Virus record (IMG/VR): IMGVR_UViG_3300020050_012089
Source: a virus
Length of the DNA: 56,673 nucleotides
Reading direction: 5' to 3' (one strand)
Of the stretch, positions 4,957 through 56,673 are shown piece after piece. The position numbers and the translations under genes are program-made. The notes below the pieces were generated by a model. That model did no database searches, was not told the DNA's origin, and saw only the letters and a list, made by a program, of their open reading frames with translations. The number at the start of each line of letters is the position of its first letter. Position 1 is the first letter of the stretch.

Positions 4957-5150
4957 ACAACAAAAACTTAGATTTAATTTTAAAAGCAGCAGACAAGTTA
5001 GCTAAAGCTGCAGATAGAAGCTTAAAAAACGATGCACTAGACAATAGTCGCATTTTAGTTGCTTTATTTGAGTATAACTTGACTAAGAAGCAAGTAAAAG
5101 ATAGTATGGAACTTGAATTGAAACAATTTAATGAATATTATAAACAATAA
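4953..5150 (+). CDS. hypothetical protein (65 aa)
   Basis: ATG 4953 overlaps the upstream TGA (ATGA coupling). The track start at 4881 lies inside the upstream gene. Confidence 0.45.
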   Translation: MNNKNLDLILKAADKLAKAADRSLKNDALDNSRILVALFEYNLTKKQVKDSMELELKQFNEYYKQ

Positions 5151-5656: not shown

Positions 5657-7864
5657 GTGCTAATTAGAGACGCATTAAGCTTACATTTAGTTCAAGACTT
5701 TATCAACAGTAATGATAAGCTATCCTACGACTTAGAAACTACTGGCCTAAACCCACGTCAAAATCTAATCATGGGTATTGCAATTACTAATGCAGATTCA
5801 GGCTACTATATTGTACTTCGAGAGTTTATTAACGGTGAGCTTGTAATCCGAATTTCCGACTCCGACATCTTACCAGTGCTTTCTTCACTACATTCCAAAA
5901 AATTATTCATGTGGAACGCTTCATTTGACTGCAGATTCACTCAATCACAGTTGAACGTTGACCTAACAACTGCTTTGTATGCCGATGGTATGTTAGCTAA
6001 GCATACTGTAATAGAAGACGCATATTCATATGCACTTAAAACTACTGCAGCAGAGTTATATGGCGATGATGCAACTACAGAACAAAAGCTAATGAAAGAG
6101 TCCATTAAGGCTAATGGAGGCTCTCCTACTGAATTCTACAAAGCAGATACAGAGATTCTCGGTAAATACGCTATCCAAGACGGTATTTTAACATATAAAA
6201 TTACAGAACACTACCTAGCACAAATTGAATTAGAAGGGTTAACCAAATTCTTTTTCGACGACGAGGTTATGCCACTATACAAGCACGTTACAATTCCTAT
6301 GGAAGCCAACGGTATTCCATTAGATTTAGAAAAAATGCAAGCAGCGAAGAAAGAAATTCGTAAAGACATTACAAACTTAGAACTTAAGGTTCAGGAGCTA
6401 ATCAAGCCCCACTGCTCCCTATTTGAAAAGTGGTATCTCAATTATCACTTTCCAGTTAAAACTACAGGTCCCTTTATTCAAGCATTAGCAGAGATTATGG
6501 ACTGTAAACTACCTAAACTTGCGACTGGAAAATTTAGTTTCGCTGCAAAACATGTTGCTGCACTTCCAGATACGGACGTGATTAAGCGCTTCTTAGGTGG
6601 CTATAGATTGCAAGACTCTACAGTTTCTGCTGTGTGTCAAAAGTTGCAAGGTTCTGAGCCTATGCTTAATTTAAGCAGCAAGCATCATTTGAAAAAAATC
6701 TTCTTCGACACTTTAAACTTGGAACCAGTAAGTAGAACAGACAAAGGTAACCCACAAGCCGATGAAAAGTTCCTAGAAAGTATTAAAGACCAATTTGATT
6801 TTGTTGCACCACTAATTGAGTTTAACAAATTAAGTAAAATTGAAGGTACGTACATAGACAGGTTTTTAGAAGCACAAGAAAATGGTATGTTTTATCCATC
6901 ATTCTTCCAACACCGCACTACTTCAGGACGCTACGGGTCTGACCTGCAGCAGCTGCCACGTCCTTTAGAACTTGAAGATGAGCCAAGTGCACTAGTAAGA
7001 TACCATAACAATAAGGTGCGCGAGTTTTTTATTGCTGGACTAGGACACAAGTTTTTGGATGCAGATTATAACTCACTTGAGGTTGTAGTATTTGCCGATG
7101 ACGCAGGCGATGAGGCTCTACTAGATGTAATTAAGACTGGTAAAGACTTTTATTCTCAAACGGCAATCGAAGTTCATGGACTACAAGCAGACTACAGCGC
7201 CGATAAAAAAGCATCAAACTTCCTAAAAATATTAAAACCAAAATTACGTCAAGATGCAAAAGCTTATGCTCTAGCAATTAGATACGGTTGTGGTTCATGG
7301 AAATTATCTCATACCTTAAACATAAGCCAAAATGAAGCAGAAGCAATTATAAGAAAGTACTTTACAAACTTCCCAGGCCTTAAAAGAGCTATGGACAATT
7401 ATGAAAAGCAAGCAAAAGTAAATGGATTTGTAGTGTCTAAAGCAGGTCGTAAACGCCACTTAGGACGCGTTAAGGAATTATACGACAAGTATAGTGATGA
7501 CCTAGCCGATAGTCTAGAGTTATGGAAGAAGTATCACGAAGTACCTTCACAGTATGCTAGAATGAAGGAATTAAGACGCGAATATAATAACCTAATCAAC
7601 AATGCTTTAAACTTTCCTATTCAATCTTTTGCTACCTCAATTGTGAATCAAAGTGCAATTAGACTTGCTAAGTATATAAAGGAAAATAAGCTTAATGCAT
7701 ATATTTGTGCTCAAATCCATGACCAATTAGTTGTGCGTTGTGCGGATAAAGATGTGCCTCGCCTACAACCTAAAATGAAAGAGATTATGGAAAATACATT
7801 TACATTGAAAGCACCATTAACAGCTAATCCGGAAATATCAAACAATTTAAGGGAGGGACATTAA
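5657..7864 (+). CDS. family A DNA polymerase with 3'-5' exonuclease domain
   Basis: Exo I DLETTGL, Exo II NASFDCRF, Exo III YAIQDG. Pol motif A DADYNSLEVVV, motif B RQDAKAYALAIRYG, motif C QIHDQLVV. GTG start with GGGGGAG SD. Confidence 0.95.
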   Translation: MLIRDALSLHLVQDFINSNDKLSYDLETTGLNPRQNLIMGIAITNADSGYYIVLREFINGELVIRISDSDILPVLSSLHSKKLFMWNASFDCRFTQSQLNVDLTTALYADGMLAKHTVIEDAYSYALKTTAAELYGDDATTEQKLMKESIKANGGSPTEFYKADTEILGKYAIQDGILTYKITEHYLAQIELEGLTKFFFDDEVMPLYKHVTIPMEANGIPLDLEKMQAAKKEIRKDITNLELKVQELIKPHCSLFEKWYLNYHFPVKTTGPFIQALAEIMDCKLPKLATGKFSFAAKHVAALPDTDVIKRFLGGYRLQDSTVSAVCQKLQGSEPMLNLSSKHHLKKIFFDTLNLEPVSRTDKGNPQADEKFLESIKDQFDFVAPLIEFNKLSKIEGTYIDRFLEAQENGMFYPSFFQHRTTSGRYGSDLQQLPRPLELEDEPSALVRYHNNKVREFFIAGLGHKFLDADYNSLEVVVFADDAGDEALLDVIKTGKDFYSQTAIEVHGLQADYSADKKASNFLKILKPKLRQDAKAYALAIRYGCGSWKLSHTLNISQNEAEAIIRKYFTNFPGLKRAMDNYEKQAKVNGFVVSKAGRKRHLGRVKELYDKYSDDLADSLELWKKYHEVPSQYARMKELRREYNNLINNALNFPIQSFATSIVNQSAIRLAKYIKENKLNAYICAQIHDQLVVRCADKDVPRLQPKMKEIMENTFTLKAPLTANPEISNNLREGH

Positions 7865-41591: not shown

Positions 41592-41618
41592 TTATCGGAT
41601 TTAGGCCCTAATACTTTA
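41592..41618 (-). promoter_or_regulatory. sigma-28 (FliA)-type promoter: TAAAGTAT-N11-TCCGATAA
   Basis: Matches TAAAGTTT-N11-GCCGATAA. It lies 48 nt upstream of the protease ATG and is followed by the stem-loop GTAGGC-N7-GCCTAC at 41567..41585. Confidence 0.55.
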
Positions 41619-43556: not shown

Positions 43557-43883
43557 TTAAAAATCATATCTATAATTAAGTGTAACTATATTAGGCTCAT
43601 CGTCCTTAAACTTCCATTCTATGGTTGCATTTTTAGTTACCGGAACTCTAAACTTTTTAGCACCTAAACTTCCGTACGCCAAAACTGCAAATAAAGCGGC
43701 TTCCGGTTCATTTCGGTACATATACTTACCAACCTGCTTTGCATCCCTCTTTACCTGCACATTATGAGATAGGTAGGCTTTTGTAAGCTGGTTACATTCC
43801 ACGTCATATAAGCAAAATGTCAATACAAGCATTTCTAACATAGGCCCCTGGTATAGAATACAAAAACATAGCACTAAATACAA
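43557..43883 (-). CDS. hypothetical protein ending in an outer-membrane beta-signal-like motif
   Basis: C-terminus VTLNYRYDF (alternating hydrophobics, terminal Phe). Start codon uncertain (TTG at 43883 or internal ATG). Confidence 0.4.
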   Translation of the reverse strand: MYLVLCFCILYQGPMLEMLVLTFCLYDVECNQLTKAYLSHNVQVKRDAKQVGKYMYRNEPEAALFAVLAYGSLGAKKFRVPVTKNATIEWKFKDDEPNIVTLNYRYDF

Positions 43884-47044: not shown

Positions 47045-47711
47045 AAGCTTCTCCGTTAATCATACTTACTTGTTCTAAAGCATCAGGCCATAGTTTCAAT
47101 AACTCTAGCTCTTCTTTTTCCATGTGGTGATAGCCTAAGTTCCGCATATCTCTTGGTCTAATTTCCATTCCAATACTTTTTAAGAATGCTAAAATTGGAT
47201 GAATATACTTAGGATGAATTGCTCCGTTTCCTTTTCCTTTAATTTGCACAATCTCATTACTTCTTTTTTGCACCTCAAAAGTAGCGTGAGGCATATTATT
47301 TTTATCTCTGTAAGAATAGATATGAACATTTTCACTTGGAACATAACCGCCAACACAATGAGACATTAGAAAGCCTTCGCGTTTGCAGGCTTTAGGATTT
47401 ATAAGTTTTACAATCTTTGTACCGTCCATAAAATCATGAATAGTTTCAGTGTCACAATCATCGTCCTCTAAATTCTTGCCTTTTTTCTGATTAGCCTTAG
47501 ACCACTCAGCGGCTTTTCTTTTTGCATCAACAAAACTCATTTTGAGAAATCGTTTTGGTGCAGATTTAGAATTAAAATAATCAACAATGTGTTCTAGCTC
47601 TGAATCAGTAGCTTTCTTTAATTTAATTGCCTTAGCTCCAGTAGTGGTAAGCCAAGATATAGTTTCTTGATTAGAATTTAGTAAAACTGCATAACTTAAT
47701 ATTTCGCTCAT
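47034..47711 (-). CDS. PcfJ-like protein
   Basis: REGFLMSHCVGGY...HATFEV...IVQIKGKGN matches the PcfJ-like pattern. ATG 47711 has a GAGGTG SD and an ATGA overlap with the repeat-protein stop. Confidence 0.55.
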   Translation of the reverse strand: MSEILSYAVLLNSNQETISWLTTTGAKAIKLKKATDSELEHIVDYFNSKSAPKRFLKMSFVDAKRKAAEWSKANQKKGKNLEDDDCDTETIHDFMDGTKIVKLINPKACKREGFLMSHCVGGYVPSENVHIYSYRDKNNMPHATFEVQKRSNEIVQIKGKGNGAIHPKYIHPILAFLKSIGMEIRPRDMRNLGYHHMEKEELELLKLWPDALEQVSMINGEAYAR

Positions 47712-48040
47712 GACTTCACCTCTGCGCCTGCATGAGTCCAAGTAGCAGGATTTTTATTGACGTCGCCGTAGCCGTAGCCGTAGCCGTAGCCGTAGCCGTT
47801 GCCGTAGCCGTAGCCGTTGCCGTAGCCGTAGCCGTTGCCGTCGCCGTCGCCGTCGCCGTCGCCGTAGCCGTAGCCGTTGCCGTAGCCGTAGCCGTCGCCG
47901 TAGCCGTTGCCGTAGCCGTAGCCGTTGCCGTCGCCGTTGCCGTAGCCGTAGCCGTTGCCGTCGCCGTCGCCGTCGCCGTCGCGAGGAATGCTTTTCAGCC
48001 TCCCTATAAAGATTAGCTTTTCCACGGCTCTTTTCTCCAT
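47708..48040 (-). CDS. Gly-(Tyr/Asp/Asn) dipeptide-repeat protein (110 aa)
   Basis: 72 of 110 residues are 36 consecutive X-Gly dipeptides (18 Tyr, 10 Asp, 8 Asn). Its stop is ATGA-coupled to the next gene. Start codon uncertain. Confidence 0.5.
   Translation of the reverse strand: MEKRAVEKLIFIGRLKSIPRDGDGDGDGNGYGYGNGDGNGYGYGNGYGDGYGYGNGYGYGDGDGDGDGNGYGYGNGYGYGNGYGYGYGYGYGDVNKNPATWTHAGAEVKS
47765..47980 (-). repeat. 36 tandem hexanucleotide units (plus strand GCCGTN; minus strand NACGGC)
   Basis: Only one position of the hexamer varies (A/C/T on the plus strand, never G). Locally GC-rich in an AT-rich genome. Confidence 0.95.
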
Positions 48041-48309: not shown

Positions 48310-48525
48310 TTACTTTTCTCCTTTAATTATTTTCATCTCTATACTTCTAAAATCTCTAGTTTTTCTAAGTTTAAATCTCTAACTACTTGCAATTACTAAA
48401 ATCAAGCTTCTGAGCAGGGCTTTGACCTTGTAATCTATCTATCGAAGCACCCAATGGGTTCTTATCAAAAACAAGGGACCTTTGCTTACACCGCTGCTCA
48501 AAAACTTGAAACGGTTAATCTATTT

Positions 48526-48603
48526 ATATATAAATGGGGCTACATAGTGAAAAAGGCGTCCCTATACCATCACTGGCTCTCAGTATGAGCCCCCATTTAT
48601 ATA
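48526..48603 (-). repeat. imperfect 15-bp inverted repeat enclosing 48 nt (candidate RNA stem-loop)
   Basis: ATATATAAATGGGGC ... GCCCCCATTTATATA (one bulged C) in an ORF-free stretch. Confidence 0.6.
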
Positions 48604-48760
48604 CTACTTTATATTTATACTTATGTAAAGTTTTTTTGCTTAAACTGTACCATTTTGAGATTACCCCAGGCTACTGGATACAGCAGGCTGAATGCGAGCA
48701 CTAGTCGGACGGGAGTTCGGAATCTAGGTCACCCATTTTGTGCCCAATATATGCTGCATA

Positions 48761-48922
48761 TCACTGGCCACCTCTTCCAGGCTTTTTAGCTAAACGAAAA
48801 GCGAGGTCTAGCTGCTGCCTTAATCGGGTCTCTAATTCTCTTTTCTTGATTGCTTGAATTTCAGGCGAAGCCTGTGGCAGGACAAGGCCCAAAGGTTTTT
48901 TAATTGAAAAGAAGTTCCACAT
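48761..48922 (-). CDS. small hypothetical protein (53 aa)
   Basis: First ORF after the sigma-28-type promoter at 48959..48985; GTGAGG SD; below the track threshold. Confidence 0.3.
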   Translation of the reverse strand: MWNFFSIKKPLGLVLPQASPEIQAIKKRELETRLRQQLDLAFRLAKKPGRGGQ

Positions 48923-50273: not shown

Positions 50274-50447
50274 TTAAGCTCCTTCACTCTTGTCTGCACA
50301 TTGCTTCATAGGTTCCTGTTCTACACAAGGTTCAATCTTTATAAGGTTCAGTGTACAGGCAGATGCTAAGGCCATAATCAATAACAGTGTAAGTATCACT
50401 AGCAGTGGCCTCAACATATCCCTAAATATTTCTTTAAGTAGTCTCAT
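50274..50447 (-). CDS. small putative lipoprotein (57 aa)
   Basis: ATGA-coupled start; signal-like LLVILTLLLIMALASAC with a non-canonical lipobox; below the track threshold. Confidence 0.35.
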   Translation of the reverse strand: MRLLKEIFRDMLRPLLVILTLLLIMALASACTLNLIKIEPCVEQEPMKQCADKSEGA

Positions 50448-51079
50448 GCCTCACCCCCGACTGCATCCTCAGCAGCATTTAGCAGCTCCTGATATTCTAA
50501 CCCTTCTGGGCTTTCTTTATTCCACTTTTTAGCTTCTTTTATAAACTTATTCACTACTGCGAAAACTACTATAGTACTGAAGCTTTTACTTTCGCTGTAT
50601 GTCTTATTCCACAGCTTTATAATTTGTCTGTAACTTTTACCTTCAACGTATCTTTGGCAAATATAGCGATTCCTAATATCTGCTGCTTCTCCGTTATCTA
50701 TATCTAGTATGCCGTAGCTTTGATTGTGTGTCAAGAAATTAGAAAGTAAATTATAGAAATGTAGCGTTTGACTAGACTGTAGTCTATACTGCTTCTTAAC
50801 ATAAGCTTCATTCTCACCGCCCTTGAACATGCCTATGTCTACTGCTCCTGTAGTTTTGCATGTATACTCAAGGTCATTGAATCCCTCGTCTTTAAGCTTT
50901 CCGTACCATTCATTTTGTAGTTTTGTAAATTCTTTTGTTTTTCTGTCTACAAGTTGGTTTTTACTTTGCCACGATTTAAGTTCCTTGTGCCCTTTTCTGC
51001 CGCCCATGATGTTTACCTTTGATGTACGTTGTGTCTCATATTGAGACTTATGTTTAACTTTTTCTTTACTTAAGCTCAC
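50444..51079 (-). CDS. first gene of the minus arm; protein with a sigma region-4-like HTH
   Basis: RYICQRYVEGKSYRQIIKLW resembles sigma r4/GerE-type HTH, but no sigma region 2. Start ambiguous (GTG 51079 or ATG 51007). Confidence 0.45.
   Translation of the reverse strand: MSLSKEKVKHKSQYETQRTSKVNIMGGRKGHKELKSWQSKNQLVDRKTKEFTKLQNEWYGKLKDEGFNDLEYTCKTTGAVDIGMFKGGENEAYVKKQYRLQSSQTLHFYNLLSNFLTHNQSYGILDIDNGEAADIRNRYICQRYVEGKSYRQIIKLWNKTYSESKSFSTIVVFAVVNKFIKEAKKWNKESPEGLEYQELLNAAEDAVGGEA
51027..51047. promoter_or_regulatory. operator-like site CGTTGTGTCTCATATTGAGAC containing perfect palindrome GTCTCA-N3-TGAGAC
   Basis: A second, near-identical copy lies 290 bp away at 51317..51337. Confidence 0.5.
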
Positions 51080-51160
51080 TCTTAAGGTATTCTGAAGTGT
51101 GGCTTATAAATACAAGTGTACCACTACGGCACACCAGCAGCACCTATTATGTTACATAAA

Positions 51161-51204
51161 CTGTACTTAAGTAGCATATTAAGTTTACCGCTGTACTTAG
51201 GTAG
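51161..51204. repeat. direct repeat CTGTACTTA(A/G)GTAG x2, 30-nt period
   Basis: Copies at 51161..51174 and 51191..51204 in the divergent control region. Confidence 0.6.
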
Positions 51205-51219
51205 AGTACCTTAATCCGG

Positions 51220-51306
51220 TCCCTATCTTTGTTGCTTTCCTTTTTCCTCACCCATTACTATGTGTGTCTCCCTATCTTCGTTGCTTTCCGATTGTCCGAT
51301 TACTAT
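51220..51306. repeat. two tandem ~49-nt units sharing TCCCTATCTT(T/C)GTTGCTTTCC and ATTACTAT
   Basis: 21-mers at 51220..51240 and 51269..51289 differ at one base; each is followed by ATTACTAT. Confidence 0.7.
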
Positions 51307-51316
51307 CGCACAAGTC

Positions 51317-51337
51317 CGTTGTGTCTCAATATGAGAT
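51317..51337. promoter_or_regulatory. operator-like site CGTTGTGTCTCAATATGAGAT (second copy)
   Basis: Identical to 51027..51047 apart from the central three bases (ATA versus TAT) and the final base. Confidence 0.5.
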
Positions 51338-51373
51338 TATGGGACACATAAGAATTTATTATAAAGTAACTGC

Positions 51374-51401
51374 TAAAGTTTCCTAAGCAGTATTCCGAAT
51401 A
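51374..51401 (+). promoter_or_regulatory. sigma-28 (FliA)-type promoter variant: TAAAGTTT-N12-TCCGAATA
   Basis: Exact -35 octamer; the -10 has the TA inverted (CCGAATAG versus CCGATAAG) and spacing is one nt longer. Followed by the same GTATATATA as copies C and D. No ORF downstream for ~550 nt. Confidence 0.45.
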
Positions 51402-51949
51402 GTATATATACATAAAAAGAACCACTGCGGGGAGGGGGAGGTGTGTTTATGGTGTTGCGTAAATGTTGCGGTTGTTACTTATGGGGTGCAGCTTAGGAAA
51501 CATAAGCGGTATACTTCTTGATAGATGCAATTTTGGGTCCAATGGAGTACTTGAGAGGTGAGTGAGAAGCTGCCATAGCACGCTTAGGCATCCTCTGGTA
51601 AGAAAGAAAGCACTAAATTCAAGAGAAATTCGGATATAGGATTTGGGTCCCTTTAAGGCTACCTAGGCAATACCTTTGCGGCCATAGGGGGCATGGTTCT
51701 TATTAGGTAGCTGATGGGGTGTTCTCTAGGGAAATCAAGGGGTTAGACGGGTGTGTGGATTGATTTGGGGCAGTGAATGTACTTTTTTGGTACAAATTAT
51801 GTAGCGGAATGGGACGATGGGTTATATTGGCTTTTAAGTGCTATATATTAGCTATCATAACCAATAGGAGTTAGTGAAATTGTTATGCTGAGGCTATTTG
51901 GTAATTGCTGTTTGGCATGAAAAATATATTGTTTATTTTAAAATATTAC
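51402..51949 (+). ncRNA. candidate non-coding transcript or replication-origin region (ORF-free, G-rich, many local stems)
   Basis: No ORF of 60 aa or more in any frame between 51080 and 51978. Flanked by two co-oriented sigma-28-type promoters. Stems include GCTACCTA...TAGGTAGC (51658/51704) and CTTATG...CATAAG. Confidence 0.3.
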
Positions 51950-51976
51950 TAAAGTATACTTAAAAAAGGTCGATAA
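51950..51976 (+). promoter_or_regulatory. sigma-28 (FliA)-type promoter: TAAAGTAT-N11-GTCGATAA
   Basis: 25 nt upstream of ATG 52001, with an AAGGAG SD in between. Confidence 0.55.
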
Positions 51977-52000
51977 GTTTATATAACTAAGGAGCACAAA

Positions 52001-52192
52001 ATGAAATTAACATCTGCAAACTTAATGAAATGGTTAGATAAGAATGATGTAAAAGAAATTTCCTTATTTGATTTGGTAACTAAACTTAAAAGAACTGAGA
52101 ATGTTTCAAAAGAAGACGTTTGTCTATGGGTTAATGAAATGGTTGCACAAAAGAAATGGAACAAGGTTTGTGCTTGGTACAATCTAAAATAA
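52001..52192 (+). CDS. hypothetical early protein (63 aa)
   Basis: First ORF of the plus arm; strong SD. Confidence 0.5.
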   Translation: MKLTSANLMKWLDKNDVKEISLFDLVTKLKRTENVSKEDVCLWVNEMVAQKKWNKVCAWYNLK

Positions 52193-54159: not shown

Positions 54160-54256
54160 ATACGAAGATATAGCTATAGTGGTTATAATTTTAGCAATTC
54201 TATTTACTATATCAAGATGTACAATAGTCATAGTTAGTGGAGGGAGTAGTTTATGA
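54146..54256 (+). CDS. small membrane peptide (36 aa)
   Basis: GGAGAA SD; hydrophobic IAIVVIILAILFTI; its stop is ATGA-coupled to the next gene. The longer track ORF from 54041 lies inside the HNH gene. Confidence 0.3.
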   Translation: MGKNKYEDIAIVVIILAILFTISRCTIVIVSGGSSL

Positions 54257-54486
54257 ATAGGAATTTAACAGATAGACAATTGCAGTTGCTTGAGATGGCA
54301 CAAAAAGGAATGAAGAATAGAGATATAGCACTAAAACTAGGATTAGCTGAGAAATCTATTAAAACATACTTTGGGCACATATATCAAAGGCTTGGAGTAA
54401 GAAATAAAAAAGAATTACTAAGTATGTATCAATCTGGGACTATGTTAGTACACACTAGAATATTACAAACTAAGATTAAAGTTTAG
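54253..54486 (+). CDS. stand-alone GerE/LuxR-type HTH regulator (77 aa)
   Basis: LTDRQLQLLEMAQKGMKNRDIALKLGLAEKSIKTYFGHIYQRLGVRNKKEL is a canonical LuxR C-terminal HTH. Confidence 0.75.
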   Translation: MNRNLTDRQLQLLEMAQKGMKNRDIALKLGLAEKSIKTYFGHIYQRLGVRNKKELLSMYQSGTMLVHTRILQTKIKV

Positions 54487-55934: not shown

Positions 55935-56673
55935 ATGCAGTCTAAAAATCTAGTTACCCCCATTTTTTACGCAACTGATTCTAAAAAGTTCTATGACTCC
56001 AAATTAGGGTCCGAAGTCACAGATAGTCAAATTGAAGTACTATTATTATTAAATGGAATTCCAAAAGAAGACATCGACAAGGCTAAATTAGAAATTGCTA
56101 TGGCAGGAAAGCCTTATAATGAGCATAGAGCTAAAAGAACTTTAGACGGAAAAATGAAACTAACTCCTAAACATGACCTAAAATTAAGATTAGACGGTGC
56201 TTACGCAGACTTAACCTTAATTATACCTATACTTTTCTTACATAAAACTGATGGTACTCATTTCGCTTTCAAAAAAATTAGCAAAAATGAAGTGTGTACA
56301 ATTAAGAATGTAGAATCCAGGTCACTAGCTACCGCTATATTGTCAGACGAAGTTATAGAACCCCAATTTAGAATTTATTATGAAGATTCCATAGTTATAC
56401 GCTCAAATATACTCTATAGTGAGTTTCTAGAGCAAATGGTAGAAAGAGCTAAGGTAGATGTAGAAAAGAGAATCTACAAAGACCCTAAAATCATAACATG
56501 GGATGAAAATGAGATTGCTTTTAAGTATTTTAACCCTGATGTGCTTACAGACGGAGCAACTCCATACTTTGATGACTTTTGTAACCGCTTAGGCCCCATT
56601 GGAAGCGACCTATTTAAAGCATGGTGCTGGTCTATCTTTGAACCTGGAAACAATTGTAGGCAAATGATGTGGA
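55935..56673 (+). CDS. SF3 (D5/P4-type) helicase, 5' part; continues at nt 122 (or equivalently nt 1) through the terminal repeat
   Basis: ATG 55935 with AAAGGA SD; open to the window end. Position 56553 is a codon start and equals position 1. Joined protein is about 514 aa. Confidence 0.7.
   Translation, partial: MQSKNLVTPIFYATDSKKFYDSKLGSEVTDSQIEVLLLLNGIPKEDIDKAKLEIAMAGKPYNEHRAKRTLDGKMKLTPKHDLKLRLDGAYADLTLIIPILFLHKTDGTHFAFKKISKNEVCTIKNVESRSLATAILSDEVIEPQFRIYYEDSIVIRSNILYSEFLEQMVERAKVDVEKRIYKDPKIITWDENEIAFKYFNPDVLTDGATPYFDDFCNRLGPIGSDLFKAWCWSIFEPGNNCRQMMW
56553..56673. repeat. Terminal direct repeat, copy 2 of 2
   Basis: Identical to 1..121. Confidence 0.9.

Follow-up and report, generated by a model that had tools for sequence, protein, structure and literature searches.

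The DNA analysed here (the window) is the 56,673-nucleotide (nt) virus record IMGVR_UViG_3300020050_012089 from IMG/VR, and our subject is an interval of it, positions 51402-51949, that lacks any sizeable open reading frame (ORF) and lies between two sigma-28-type promoter sequences, which we call P1 and P2. We lean, with moderate confidence, towards reading this interval as the untranslated core of a multi-promoter early control region, a long leader made of decayed promoter modules, and not as the gene for a folded RNA. The reading draws on the architecture of the region, its pattern of conservation among relatives, its base composition, and the absence of any RNA-gene or peptide signal. It presumes that the predicted promoters are active, that a protein binds a repeated TGTTGC motif near the start of the leader, and that the excess of G over C serves an untranslated transcript. 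The gap is real, its layout is conserved and its explanation is ordinary; two points in it merit experiment, namely a positionally conserved cluster of G tracts and the set of sigma-28-type promoters.

In the arrangement that we propose, P1 would fire rightward into about 550 nt without a detectable terminator, and a phage regulator would bind a TGTTGC-N5-TGTTGC pair in the short conserved leader. The interior, of about 330 nt, would descend from duplicated and decayed promoter-plus-operator units, of which five persist in tandem in one relative (L180) and an inverted relic in the window; it would be constrained in length, with roughly 550-650 nt from P1 to P2 in five lineages, and in composition (C-poor, with G tracts), but not in sequence. 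Within the last 150 nt, an extended -10 promoter, a TTGGCA-16-TATTTT promoter and P2 would drive the early genes rightward. The bias of G over C may serve the untranslated transcript either by avoiding Rho loading or by favouring R-loops.

The largest non-coding gap lies between two diverging transcription units

The ends of the window overlap exactly over 121 bp (1-121 = 56553-56673), which makes the assembly circular with a unit of 56,552 bp, and this circle is a complete phage genome. It belongs to an uncultured podophage (podovirus) whose portal is SU10-like: the genome encodes portal and adaptor proteins of the SU10 type, a major capsid protein, a large terminase and a family A DNA polymerase, and a P4-type primase-helicase gene (about 55893 to 927) runs across the contig junction. 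All GenBank phages are remote from it–for example, the best match to its terminase is only 23% identical–and a BLASTN search of 51000-52000 against GenBank phages gave no match. Minus-strand genes run from 51007 down to about 9100, plus-strand genes run from 52001 across the junction to about 9100, and the GC skew tracks this two-strand split. The interval is inside the gap 51008-52000 between these two diverging units, which is the largest non-coding gap in the genome. An initial annotation, made from the sequence alone, had placed non-coding control DNA at the genome's point of divergence, and this placement is borne out. The sign of the skew flips at ~51330-51370, where P1 is on one side and a predicted leftward sigma-70-type promoter (51329-51302) on the other, so each of the two untranslated leaders has a G-rich RNA; the minimum of the cumulative GC skew is also located here. 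A scan for tRNA and tmRNA genes found none.

We set the left edge of the gap at 51008 because homologues of the flanking minus-strand protein start at an internal ATG. The mechanical call for this ORF (50444-51079) is 211 amino acids (aa) long with a GTG start; the real product is probably 187 aa, from the ATG at 51007 (MGGRKG...), as in the homologues. Profile searches link the 187-aa protein family weakly to FixJ/LuxR-type helix-turn-helix (HTH) regulators and reach a protein that its source names as a FixJ-family regulator. The protein has no match among Pfam or PDB sequences, and its AlphaFold model is unusable (predicted local distance difference test score, pLDDT, 39). On the right, the first early gene has the Shine-Dalgarno sequence AGGAG and its ATG at 52001, and is predicted to be fed by P2.

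The two ends of the interval are conserved and its interior diverges freely

The comparison set consisted of contigs encoding homologues of the two flanking proteins, with five JGI sibling genomes (contigs of 3.7-57 kb) standing outside it. The same layout, with the same divergent genes, is present in five further lineages. The P1-P2 interval is 545 nt long in L005, 607 nt in L006, about 570 nt in L173 (with L174 and L175) and about 612 nt in L176 (with L177); across the five lineages the span is 545-612 nt. The L180/L181 contig ends inside the region, the L168 contig contains P1 only, and the L004 contig covers just the far-left part of the gap.

Only the two ends are conserved. The left end comprises P1, a leader of ~70 nt and the TGTTGC-N5-TGTTGC pair; the right end comprises three sequence blocks that we call C, D and E, in this order, then P2, the ribosome-binding site and the start codon. 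The ~330 nt between them diverge freely. In this fast-evolving, C-poor and G-rich spacer (51511-51799, plus strand), L005 and L006 are 40-48% identical with many insertions and deletions, compared with about 70% DNA identity in the flanking genes.

Both P1 and the right-end cluster are present in one copy each and restricted to the clade. Scans of viral contigs for the exact pattern of block E gave no match, and the element is in none of 160 distant marine phage loci found when metagenome and viral contigs were scanned at the protein level with the 94-aa early protein. Three matches to the block E pattern in GTDB genomes were set aside as chance, there being no further homology around them.

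Promoter sequences flank the interval

P1 (51374-51402, plus strand) is a sigma-28-type variant, consisting of TAAAGTTT at 51374-51381, a 13-nt gap, and CCGAATAG at 51395-51402. The spacing from TAAAGT to CGA is 16, one base above the other sites, and the predicted transcription start is near 51408-51411. P1 aligns with the P1 sequences of L005, L006, L173, L176 and L168, with the invariant positions AAGT...CGA..AGTAT.TAT, and it is conserved in six relatives, always with the longer spacer. A canonical CCGATAAG is found in the P1 of L173, L176, L168 and L180, where the spacing is 16 as well. P2 (51950-51977, plus strand) is canonical: it consists of TAAAGTAT (51950-51957), 12 nt, and TCGATAAG, and fits the pattern TAAAGT-N15-CGATA, of which the window has 8 sites when 0.57 are expected. 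Relative to the sigma-28 consensus, the -35 element TAAAGTTT is present as such in P1 and as TAAAGTAT in P2, and the -10 element GCCGATAA at N15 is fitted by P2 (TCGATAAG), whereas P1 has CCGAATAG at N16. Both flanking sigma-28-type promoters named in the initial annotation stand as predictions, P2 as a canonical site and P1 as a variant, and the conserved P1 is predicted to be directed into the ORF-free stretch.

Towards the right end, block C (TGTAGCGGAATGGGAC, 51800-51815, plus strand) is a candidate protein-binding site upstream of the early promoters. The window shares its consensus TGTAGCrGAATGrGAC with L005, L006 and L173, and by hand reading the ORFs across it are not conserved. Block D (51877-51889, plus strand; AAATTGTTAT) is conserved and forms a putative extended -10 sigma-70-type promoter, with TG at 51881-51882 and TATGCT at 51884-51889; L006 has a perfect TGTTATAAT here and L005 has TGTTATATT. 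Block E (51912-51939, plus strand) was called by a promoter scan as a sigma-70-type promoter, TTGGCA, 16 nt, TATTTT. Its sequence TTTGGCATGAAAAATA, which holds the -35 part, is the same in L005 and L006 as in the window, with one base changed in L173. The sigma-70-type promoter calls coincide exactly with the conserved blocks D and E, and together with P2 they make three rightward promoter matches within the last 150 nt, each a candidate for early transcription. The putative sigma-70-type promoter of the leftward operon (51302-51329, minus strand) has TTGAGA, 16 nt, GATAGT and an upstream TG, and overlaps the palindrome GTCTCAATATGAGA (51323-51336).

The leader contains a repeated motif and probable relics of promoter units

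Downstream of P1 there is a conserved leader motif, AACCACTGCGGGGAGGGGGAGGTGTGT (51420-51446, plus strand; family consensus ACCnCnGnGGGG..GTGTrT), which aligns in five lineages and has 82% identity over 44 nt to L173 (E = 1.7e-6). It is not conserved as a peptide, because L005 and L006 do not maintain one reading frame through it. It is followed by the direct repeat TGTTGC-N5-TGTTGC (51453-51469, plus strand; 11 bp from start to start), which may be an operator or the site of an activator and spans about +45 to +62 of the predicted P1 transcript. The pair occurs once in the genome, counting either strand, and is at the same place in L005, L006 and L173. We read it as a probable regulator site because its two halves are one helical turn apart, it is unique in the genome, its position is conserved, and it lies upstream of each copy of P1 in L180. 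The natural candidate for its binder would be the adjacent 187-aa HTH protein, which is distantly LuxR/FixJ-like, and the other candidates are two small GerE-type proteins. These two LuxR/GerE-type HTH proteins, picked by eye among the translated ORFs, are encoded at 54253-54483 (plus strand) and by a minus-strand ORF near 43557-43880 (approximate coordinates); the best Pfam GerE match has E = 6e-16.

L180 (ENA ERZ15185984 NODE_22382) has two complete tandem copies of P1 with a TGTTGC pair before each, and next to them three tandem 60-nt units, each made of TGTTGCGG and a degenerate P1-like promoter; the units are at about 560-740 in reverse-complement coordinates. The P1 of the window (51372-51392) is 90-95% identical to the L180 units, and 51454-51471 is identical at 18 of 18 positions to the L180 sequence that leads its first degenerate unit. 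The window also contains an inverted, degenerate P1 unit, TTATGTTT-CCTAAGCTGCAC-CCCATAAG (51480-51510, minus strand), which has the form TTATGTTT-N12-CCCATAAG with disabling changes and is probably an inactive relic. It makes an inverted repeat with 51369-51388 (85% identity over 20 nt), and its 11-mer GTTTCCTAAGC (51491-51501) exactly matches, in inverted orientation, 51378-51388 in the P1 spacer and is present in the L180 units too. In L005 and L006, a fragment CTTGCAATATCTA...ATGCGAGCC lines up by hand reading with the P1b region of L180. The tandem units of L180, the matches between L180 and the window, and the inverted relic lead us to regard the interval as a probable array of promoter-plus-operator modules, only the first of which is intact in the window.

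Upstream of P1 there are 21-nt direct repeats, TCCCTATCTT(T/C)GTTGCTTTCC, at 51220-51240 and 51269-51289 (plus strand), each with a GTTGC core. They are 95% identical to each other (E = 2e-5) and match the downstream GTTGC block of L005 and L006. The density of GTTGC near the interval is not unique in the genome.

The interval is G-rich and contains the only G-quadruplex-type motif in the genome

The G-richness of the plus strand, noted at the outset, is real and extreme: G makes up 28.5% of the interval and C 12.2%, and the resulting GC skew of +0.40 is in the top 0.3% of 548-nt windows. There are 13 runs of three or more Gs, where the genome averages 2.2, and 7 runs of at least four, which is the genome maximum. 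The AT-rich end is equally real, the 100 nt at 51911-52010 having 20% GC and ranking second in the genome. The repeated words and local stems that the initial annotation listed are at the coordinates it gave, but their number is at chance level: there are 4 repeated 8-mers against 5.5 +/- 3.0 in shuffled sequences, and nearby inverted repeats number 1 against 0.67 for 8-mers and 11 against 7.5 +/- 3.4 for 6-mers. The only tandem repeat in the region is an AT-rich 11-mer that overlaps the promoters.

Searching for four runs of at least three Gs with loops of at most 12 nt, we found a potential G-quadruplex motif, GGGGTGTTCTCTAGGGAAATCAAGGGGTTAGACGGG, at 51716-51751 (plus strand), with loops of 9, 7 and 6 nt. 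It is the sole motif of this type on either strand of the window. The L006 contig (8.9 kb) also contains exactly one, at 6564-6598, in the equivalent place and on the same strand, with loops of 7, 7 and 7 nt, and so does the L176 contig (10.5 kb), which has GGGCGCGGGAGGGGCGCGAGGGGGG in the 3' half of the interval, again on the same strand. The background in ~1.25 Mb of other phage loci is 0.015 motifs per kb. The position of the motif is conserved across three lineages, its folding being a prediction. The three motifs do not align with one another, so it is the G tracts that appear to be kept and not a particular sequence. L005 and L173 have neither the G tracts nor the motif.

Alternative explanations

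As first noted, 51402-51949 has no ORF reaching 60 aa in any frame. The longest is one of 44 aa (GTG start, minus strand), followed by one of 33 aa (GTG start, plus strand) and a pair of 32 aa that start with ATG; the earlier estimate of about 26 codons for the longest ATG ORFs was therefore slightly low. That the interval encodes one or more very small proteins is, in our judgement, extremely unlikely. It does contain several ORFs of 15-33 codons, including an ATG-initiated 15-codon in-frame part of win_+_42_95 that starts ~7 nt past a GGAGG, and L005, L006 and L176 have in common a ATGAGTAGC start exactly at the predicted start of the P1 transcript. However, the ATG of ATGAGTAGC is missing from the window and from L173, and its frame is shifted between L005 and L006; small ORFs in general were rejected as conserved candidates, since their frames are not maintained between relatives. 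The ORF over block C stops after 4 codons in L006 (hand reading), and in a six-frame TBLASTN search for degenerate coding sequence, fragments of the gap matched other loci only where the DNA itself is conserved. The structured early RNA that the initial annotation had put forward is not supported by the data. We consider it improbable that P1 makes a discrete functional non-coding RNA (ncRNA) acting in trans, such as a decoy, a sponge or a small RNA precursor, even though P1 and the opening ~70 nt of its transcript are conserved as nucleotides and not as a peptide, and a C-poor sense strand would suit an untranslated RNA that escapes Rho. There was no Rfam match in the whole window at the gathering score, and at E <= 10 there were two chance-level matches in 50900-52100, both outside the interval. 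The minimum free energy (MFE) of the interval has z-scores against shuffled sequences of +0.44 (plus strand) and -0.59 (minus strand), and 120-nt windows of it have z-scores from -1.7 to +1.1 on either strand; those of two relatives are just as unremarkable, with a lowest value of -2.5 and no consistent signal. The consensus structures are weak: RNAalifold on three sequences gave -8.1 kcal/mol with covariation terms of -0.3 and -1.2, from few and very divergent sequences. The interior is not conserved, a sponge-type search for k-mers enriched across lineages found no repeated motif in common and none that stands out, and the plus strand of 51402-51949 has no terminator-like site, therefore no discrete RNA end.

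The initial annotation also offered a replication origin; a transcription-primed one is another possibility, unlikely in our view, and one that could coexist with the promoter array. The G-rich 5' part of the P1 transcript (GGGGAGGGGGAGG) and the later G tracts would form a persistent R-loop or G-quadruplex hybrid on the C-rich template, and the hybrid would act as a primer or an opening device beside the AT-rich 51900-52000, where the family A polymerase and the P4-type primase-helicase would start. Transcription-dependent origins are represented by the primary origin of T7 (promoters 1.1A/1.1B and an AT-rich region), RNA II of ColE1, and conserved sequence block II (CSB II) of mitochondria. 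Several features recall them or speak for an origin: P1 points into non-coding DNA whose non-template strand is G-rich, the genome's only G-quadruplex-type motif lies there (likewise in L006 and L176), the second AT-richest 100 nt of the genome is directly downstream, and the phage encodes a family A polymerase and a P4-type primase. P1 followed by 51911-52010 at 20% GC has the T7/ColE1-type layout of a promoter and an AT-rich region, and the cumulative GC skew minimum is here as well. In L007, a distant phage that shares the P2-type promoter, the intergenic region between divergent genes contains a (TA)n run and two perfect DnaA boxes, but the gene flanking it is not homologous. Against an origin, the GC skew switches where the direction of transcription does, which confounds it as a signal; three promoters already account for the AT-rich stretch; L005 and L173 have neither G tracts nor the motif; and past the first G cluster G makes up no more than about 34%, a low value for a long R-loop. 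We found 13 DnaA boxes (TTATCCACA, at most 1 mismatch) in the window when 15 are expected, and none in 51008-52000. Nor did we find a significant iteron array. Iteron origins such as lambda ori, P4 ori and those of plasmids resemble the region in having short direct repeats one helical turn apart (here TGTTGC, 11 bp) near an AT-rich region and, for P4, in the type of primase. They differ in that the array check found here just one pair of adjacent TGTTGC copies plus the GTTGC cores of the two upstream 21-nt repeats, and in that the repeats of L180 travel with each promoter copy, which better fits a site for a transcription factor. The stronger proposal, that the G-tract cluster 3' of P1 is a selected R-loop or G-quadruplex device and that a sigma-28-type transcript primes or opens a phage origin, strikes us as quite unlikely; if true, it would give bacterial viruses a counterpart of the CSB II (mitochondrial) and ColE1 mechanism, in a phage with its whole transcription programme on the host flagellar sigma consensus. 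We likewise doubt strongly that the packaged DNA has its physical ends in the gap (as a direct terminal repeat or a pac region), which would then enter the cell first, with inward promoters helping to pull the genome in as at the T7 left end. About 1 kb of non-coding DNA with several tandem rightward promoters before the first early gene would be in keeping with this, as would the podoviral SU10-like portal and adaptor, an interval length that is conserved (a spacing requirement) and a circular assembly that conceals the real ends. But the contigs of relatives break at inconsistent places and no sequence feature of the assembly marks an end.

Several points also weigh against the promoter-array leader that we favour. 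Every promoter in it is a match to a sequence pattern, and the P1 of the window has a non-consensus -10 element (CCGAATAG). The proteins named as binders of TGTTGC are candidates only, the 187-aa protein among them having the structure model with pLDDT 39. Covariation tests are almost powerless here, with five lineages and none close to the window in this interval. A phage should lose a purely decaying spacer fast, but this one keeps its length, and a G-quadruplex-type motif unique in the genome recurs at the same place in three lineages. The kept length and the recurrent G motif suggest a function that the promoter-array model leaves unnamed.

Other features of the genome

The left half of the gap (51008-51370) has features of its own: the palindrome GTCTCA-N3-TGAGAC at 51033-51047 and 51323-51336, two copies of CTGTACTTArGTAG, and a terminator-like hairpin on the minus strand (51135-51115). 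Positions 51008-51138 have ~3 differences from L004 (about 98% identity, by eye), when the adjacent protein is only 91% identical. This half could be a minus-strand leader, an attenuator or a small RNA. Within the interval, a likeness by eye of 51750-51768 to the 3' end of a type I-C CRISPR (clustered regularly interspaced short palindromic repeats) repeat was rejected, as the stem-forming half is absent.

There is a second long non-coding stretch in the genome, of 451 nt, at 48310-48760 on the minus strand. It is downstream of a 53-aa ORF (48761-48922), which itself follows a sigma-28-type promoter sequence (48985-48960). Unlike 51402-51949, it folds better than its shuffled versions (MFE -113.7 kcal/mol, z = -2.53, with 2 of 100 shuffles as good); it has a long stem, AAAUGGGGGCU...AGCCCCAUUU, near 48535-48600, and no Rfam match. 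Nearby, the hexamer CGTAGC is repeated in tandem 36.5 times at 47761-47979; this array is part of the minus-strand ORF 47708-48037 and encodes a Gly-Tyr / Gly-Asp / Gly-Asn dipeptide-repeat protein, GDGDGNGYGYGNG... The divergent intergenic region of L007 (4607-6060 of NCBI GCA_040384045.1, JAWVHH010005332.1) is 1454 nt long; its perfect DnaA boxes are at 5032 and 5044, 12 bp apart, and its P2-like sigma-28-type promoter sequence is at 6010-6036.

Implications and comparison with known systems

For annotation, the promoter-array reading would make the largest gap of this genome a promoter-rich early control region and not an RNA gene, with coordinates for its promoter, operator-like and G-tract elements. 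Across lineages, the comparison points to a phage control region that arose by duplication and decay of a promoter-plus-operator module. If the G-quadruplex-type motif acts in replication, it would represent a new type of origin for a tailed phage, and if the host flagellar sigma factor reads the sigma-28-type promoters, phage expression would be tied to host motility.

In enteric bacteria, the flagellar class 3 promoters read by sigma-28 (FliA) have the consensus TAAAGTTT-N11-GCCGATAA. P2 and six other sites in the genome match both elements and the spacing, and P1 matches the -35 element. A near-perfect version of the consensus (TAAAGTtt-N11-cCCGATAAG) heads genes on both transcription units, the sigma-28-type sites being at 41593, 43523 and 48960 (minus strand) and at 51950, 52196, 53166 and 54477 (plus strand). 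The differences from the enteric promoters are that the sites are in a phage genome, on both units, that P1 has CCGAATAG and a spacer one base longer, and that the consensus is enteric and its reader here may be a phage sigma factor so divergent that it escapes recognition. In the literature we did not find a phage described as running on FliA-type promoters.

No gene for a phage sigma factor is among the Pfam, NCBIfam and PHROGs families listed for the window (best 25 per summary), and the phage may either depend on host FliA or encode a cryptic sigma factor. Phages phiEco32 and 7-11 encode their own, highly divergent sigma factors, and the 7-11 promoter motif is GTAAtg-16-aCTA (PMC8948821); a cryptic sigma factor is therefore possible in the phage of the window. 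It resembles phiEco32 and 7-11 in being a podophage with an SU10-type portal and adaptor, in its bipartite, phage-specific promoters, and in the sigma-70-type early promoters at one end of the genome, and differs from them in that they have their own sigma factor and different motifs (PMC8948821), no such gene being among the families listed for the window.

The three promoter matches ahead of the first early gene (51881-51889, 51912-51939 and 51950-51977) are all on conserved blocks and form a predicted tandem set of host-type promoters. At the left end of T7, about 0.9 kb of non-coding DNA precedes gene 0.3 and carries the tandem host promoters A1, A2 and A3. This is the closest analogue of the region, with which it shares a long non-coding stretch before the first early gene, tandem promoters facing the early genes, and an untranslated leader. 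The region differs from the T7 left end in lying between divergent units of a circular assembly, in having the sigma-28 consensus at its upstream and proximal promoters, and in the spacing of about 575 nt, with G-rich filler, between its first and last promoters.

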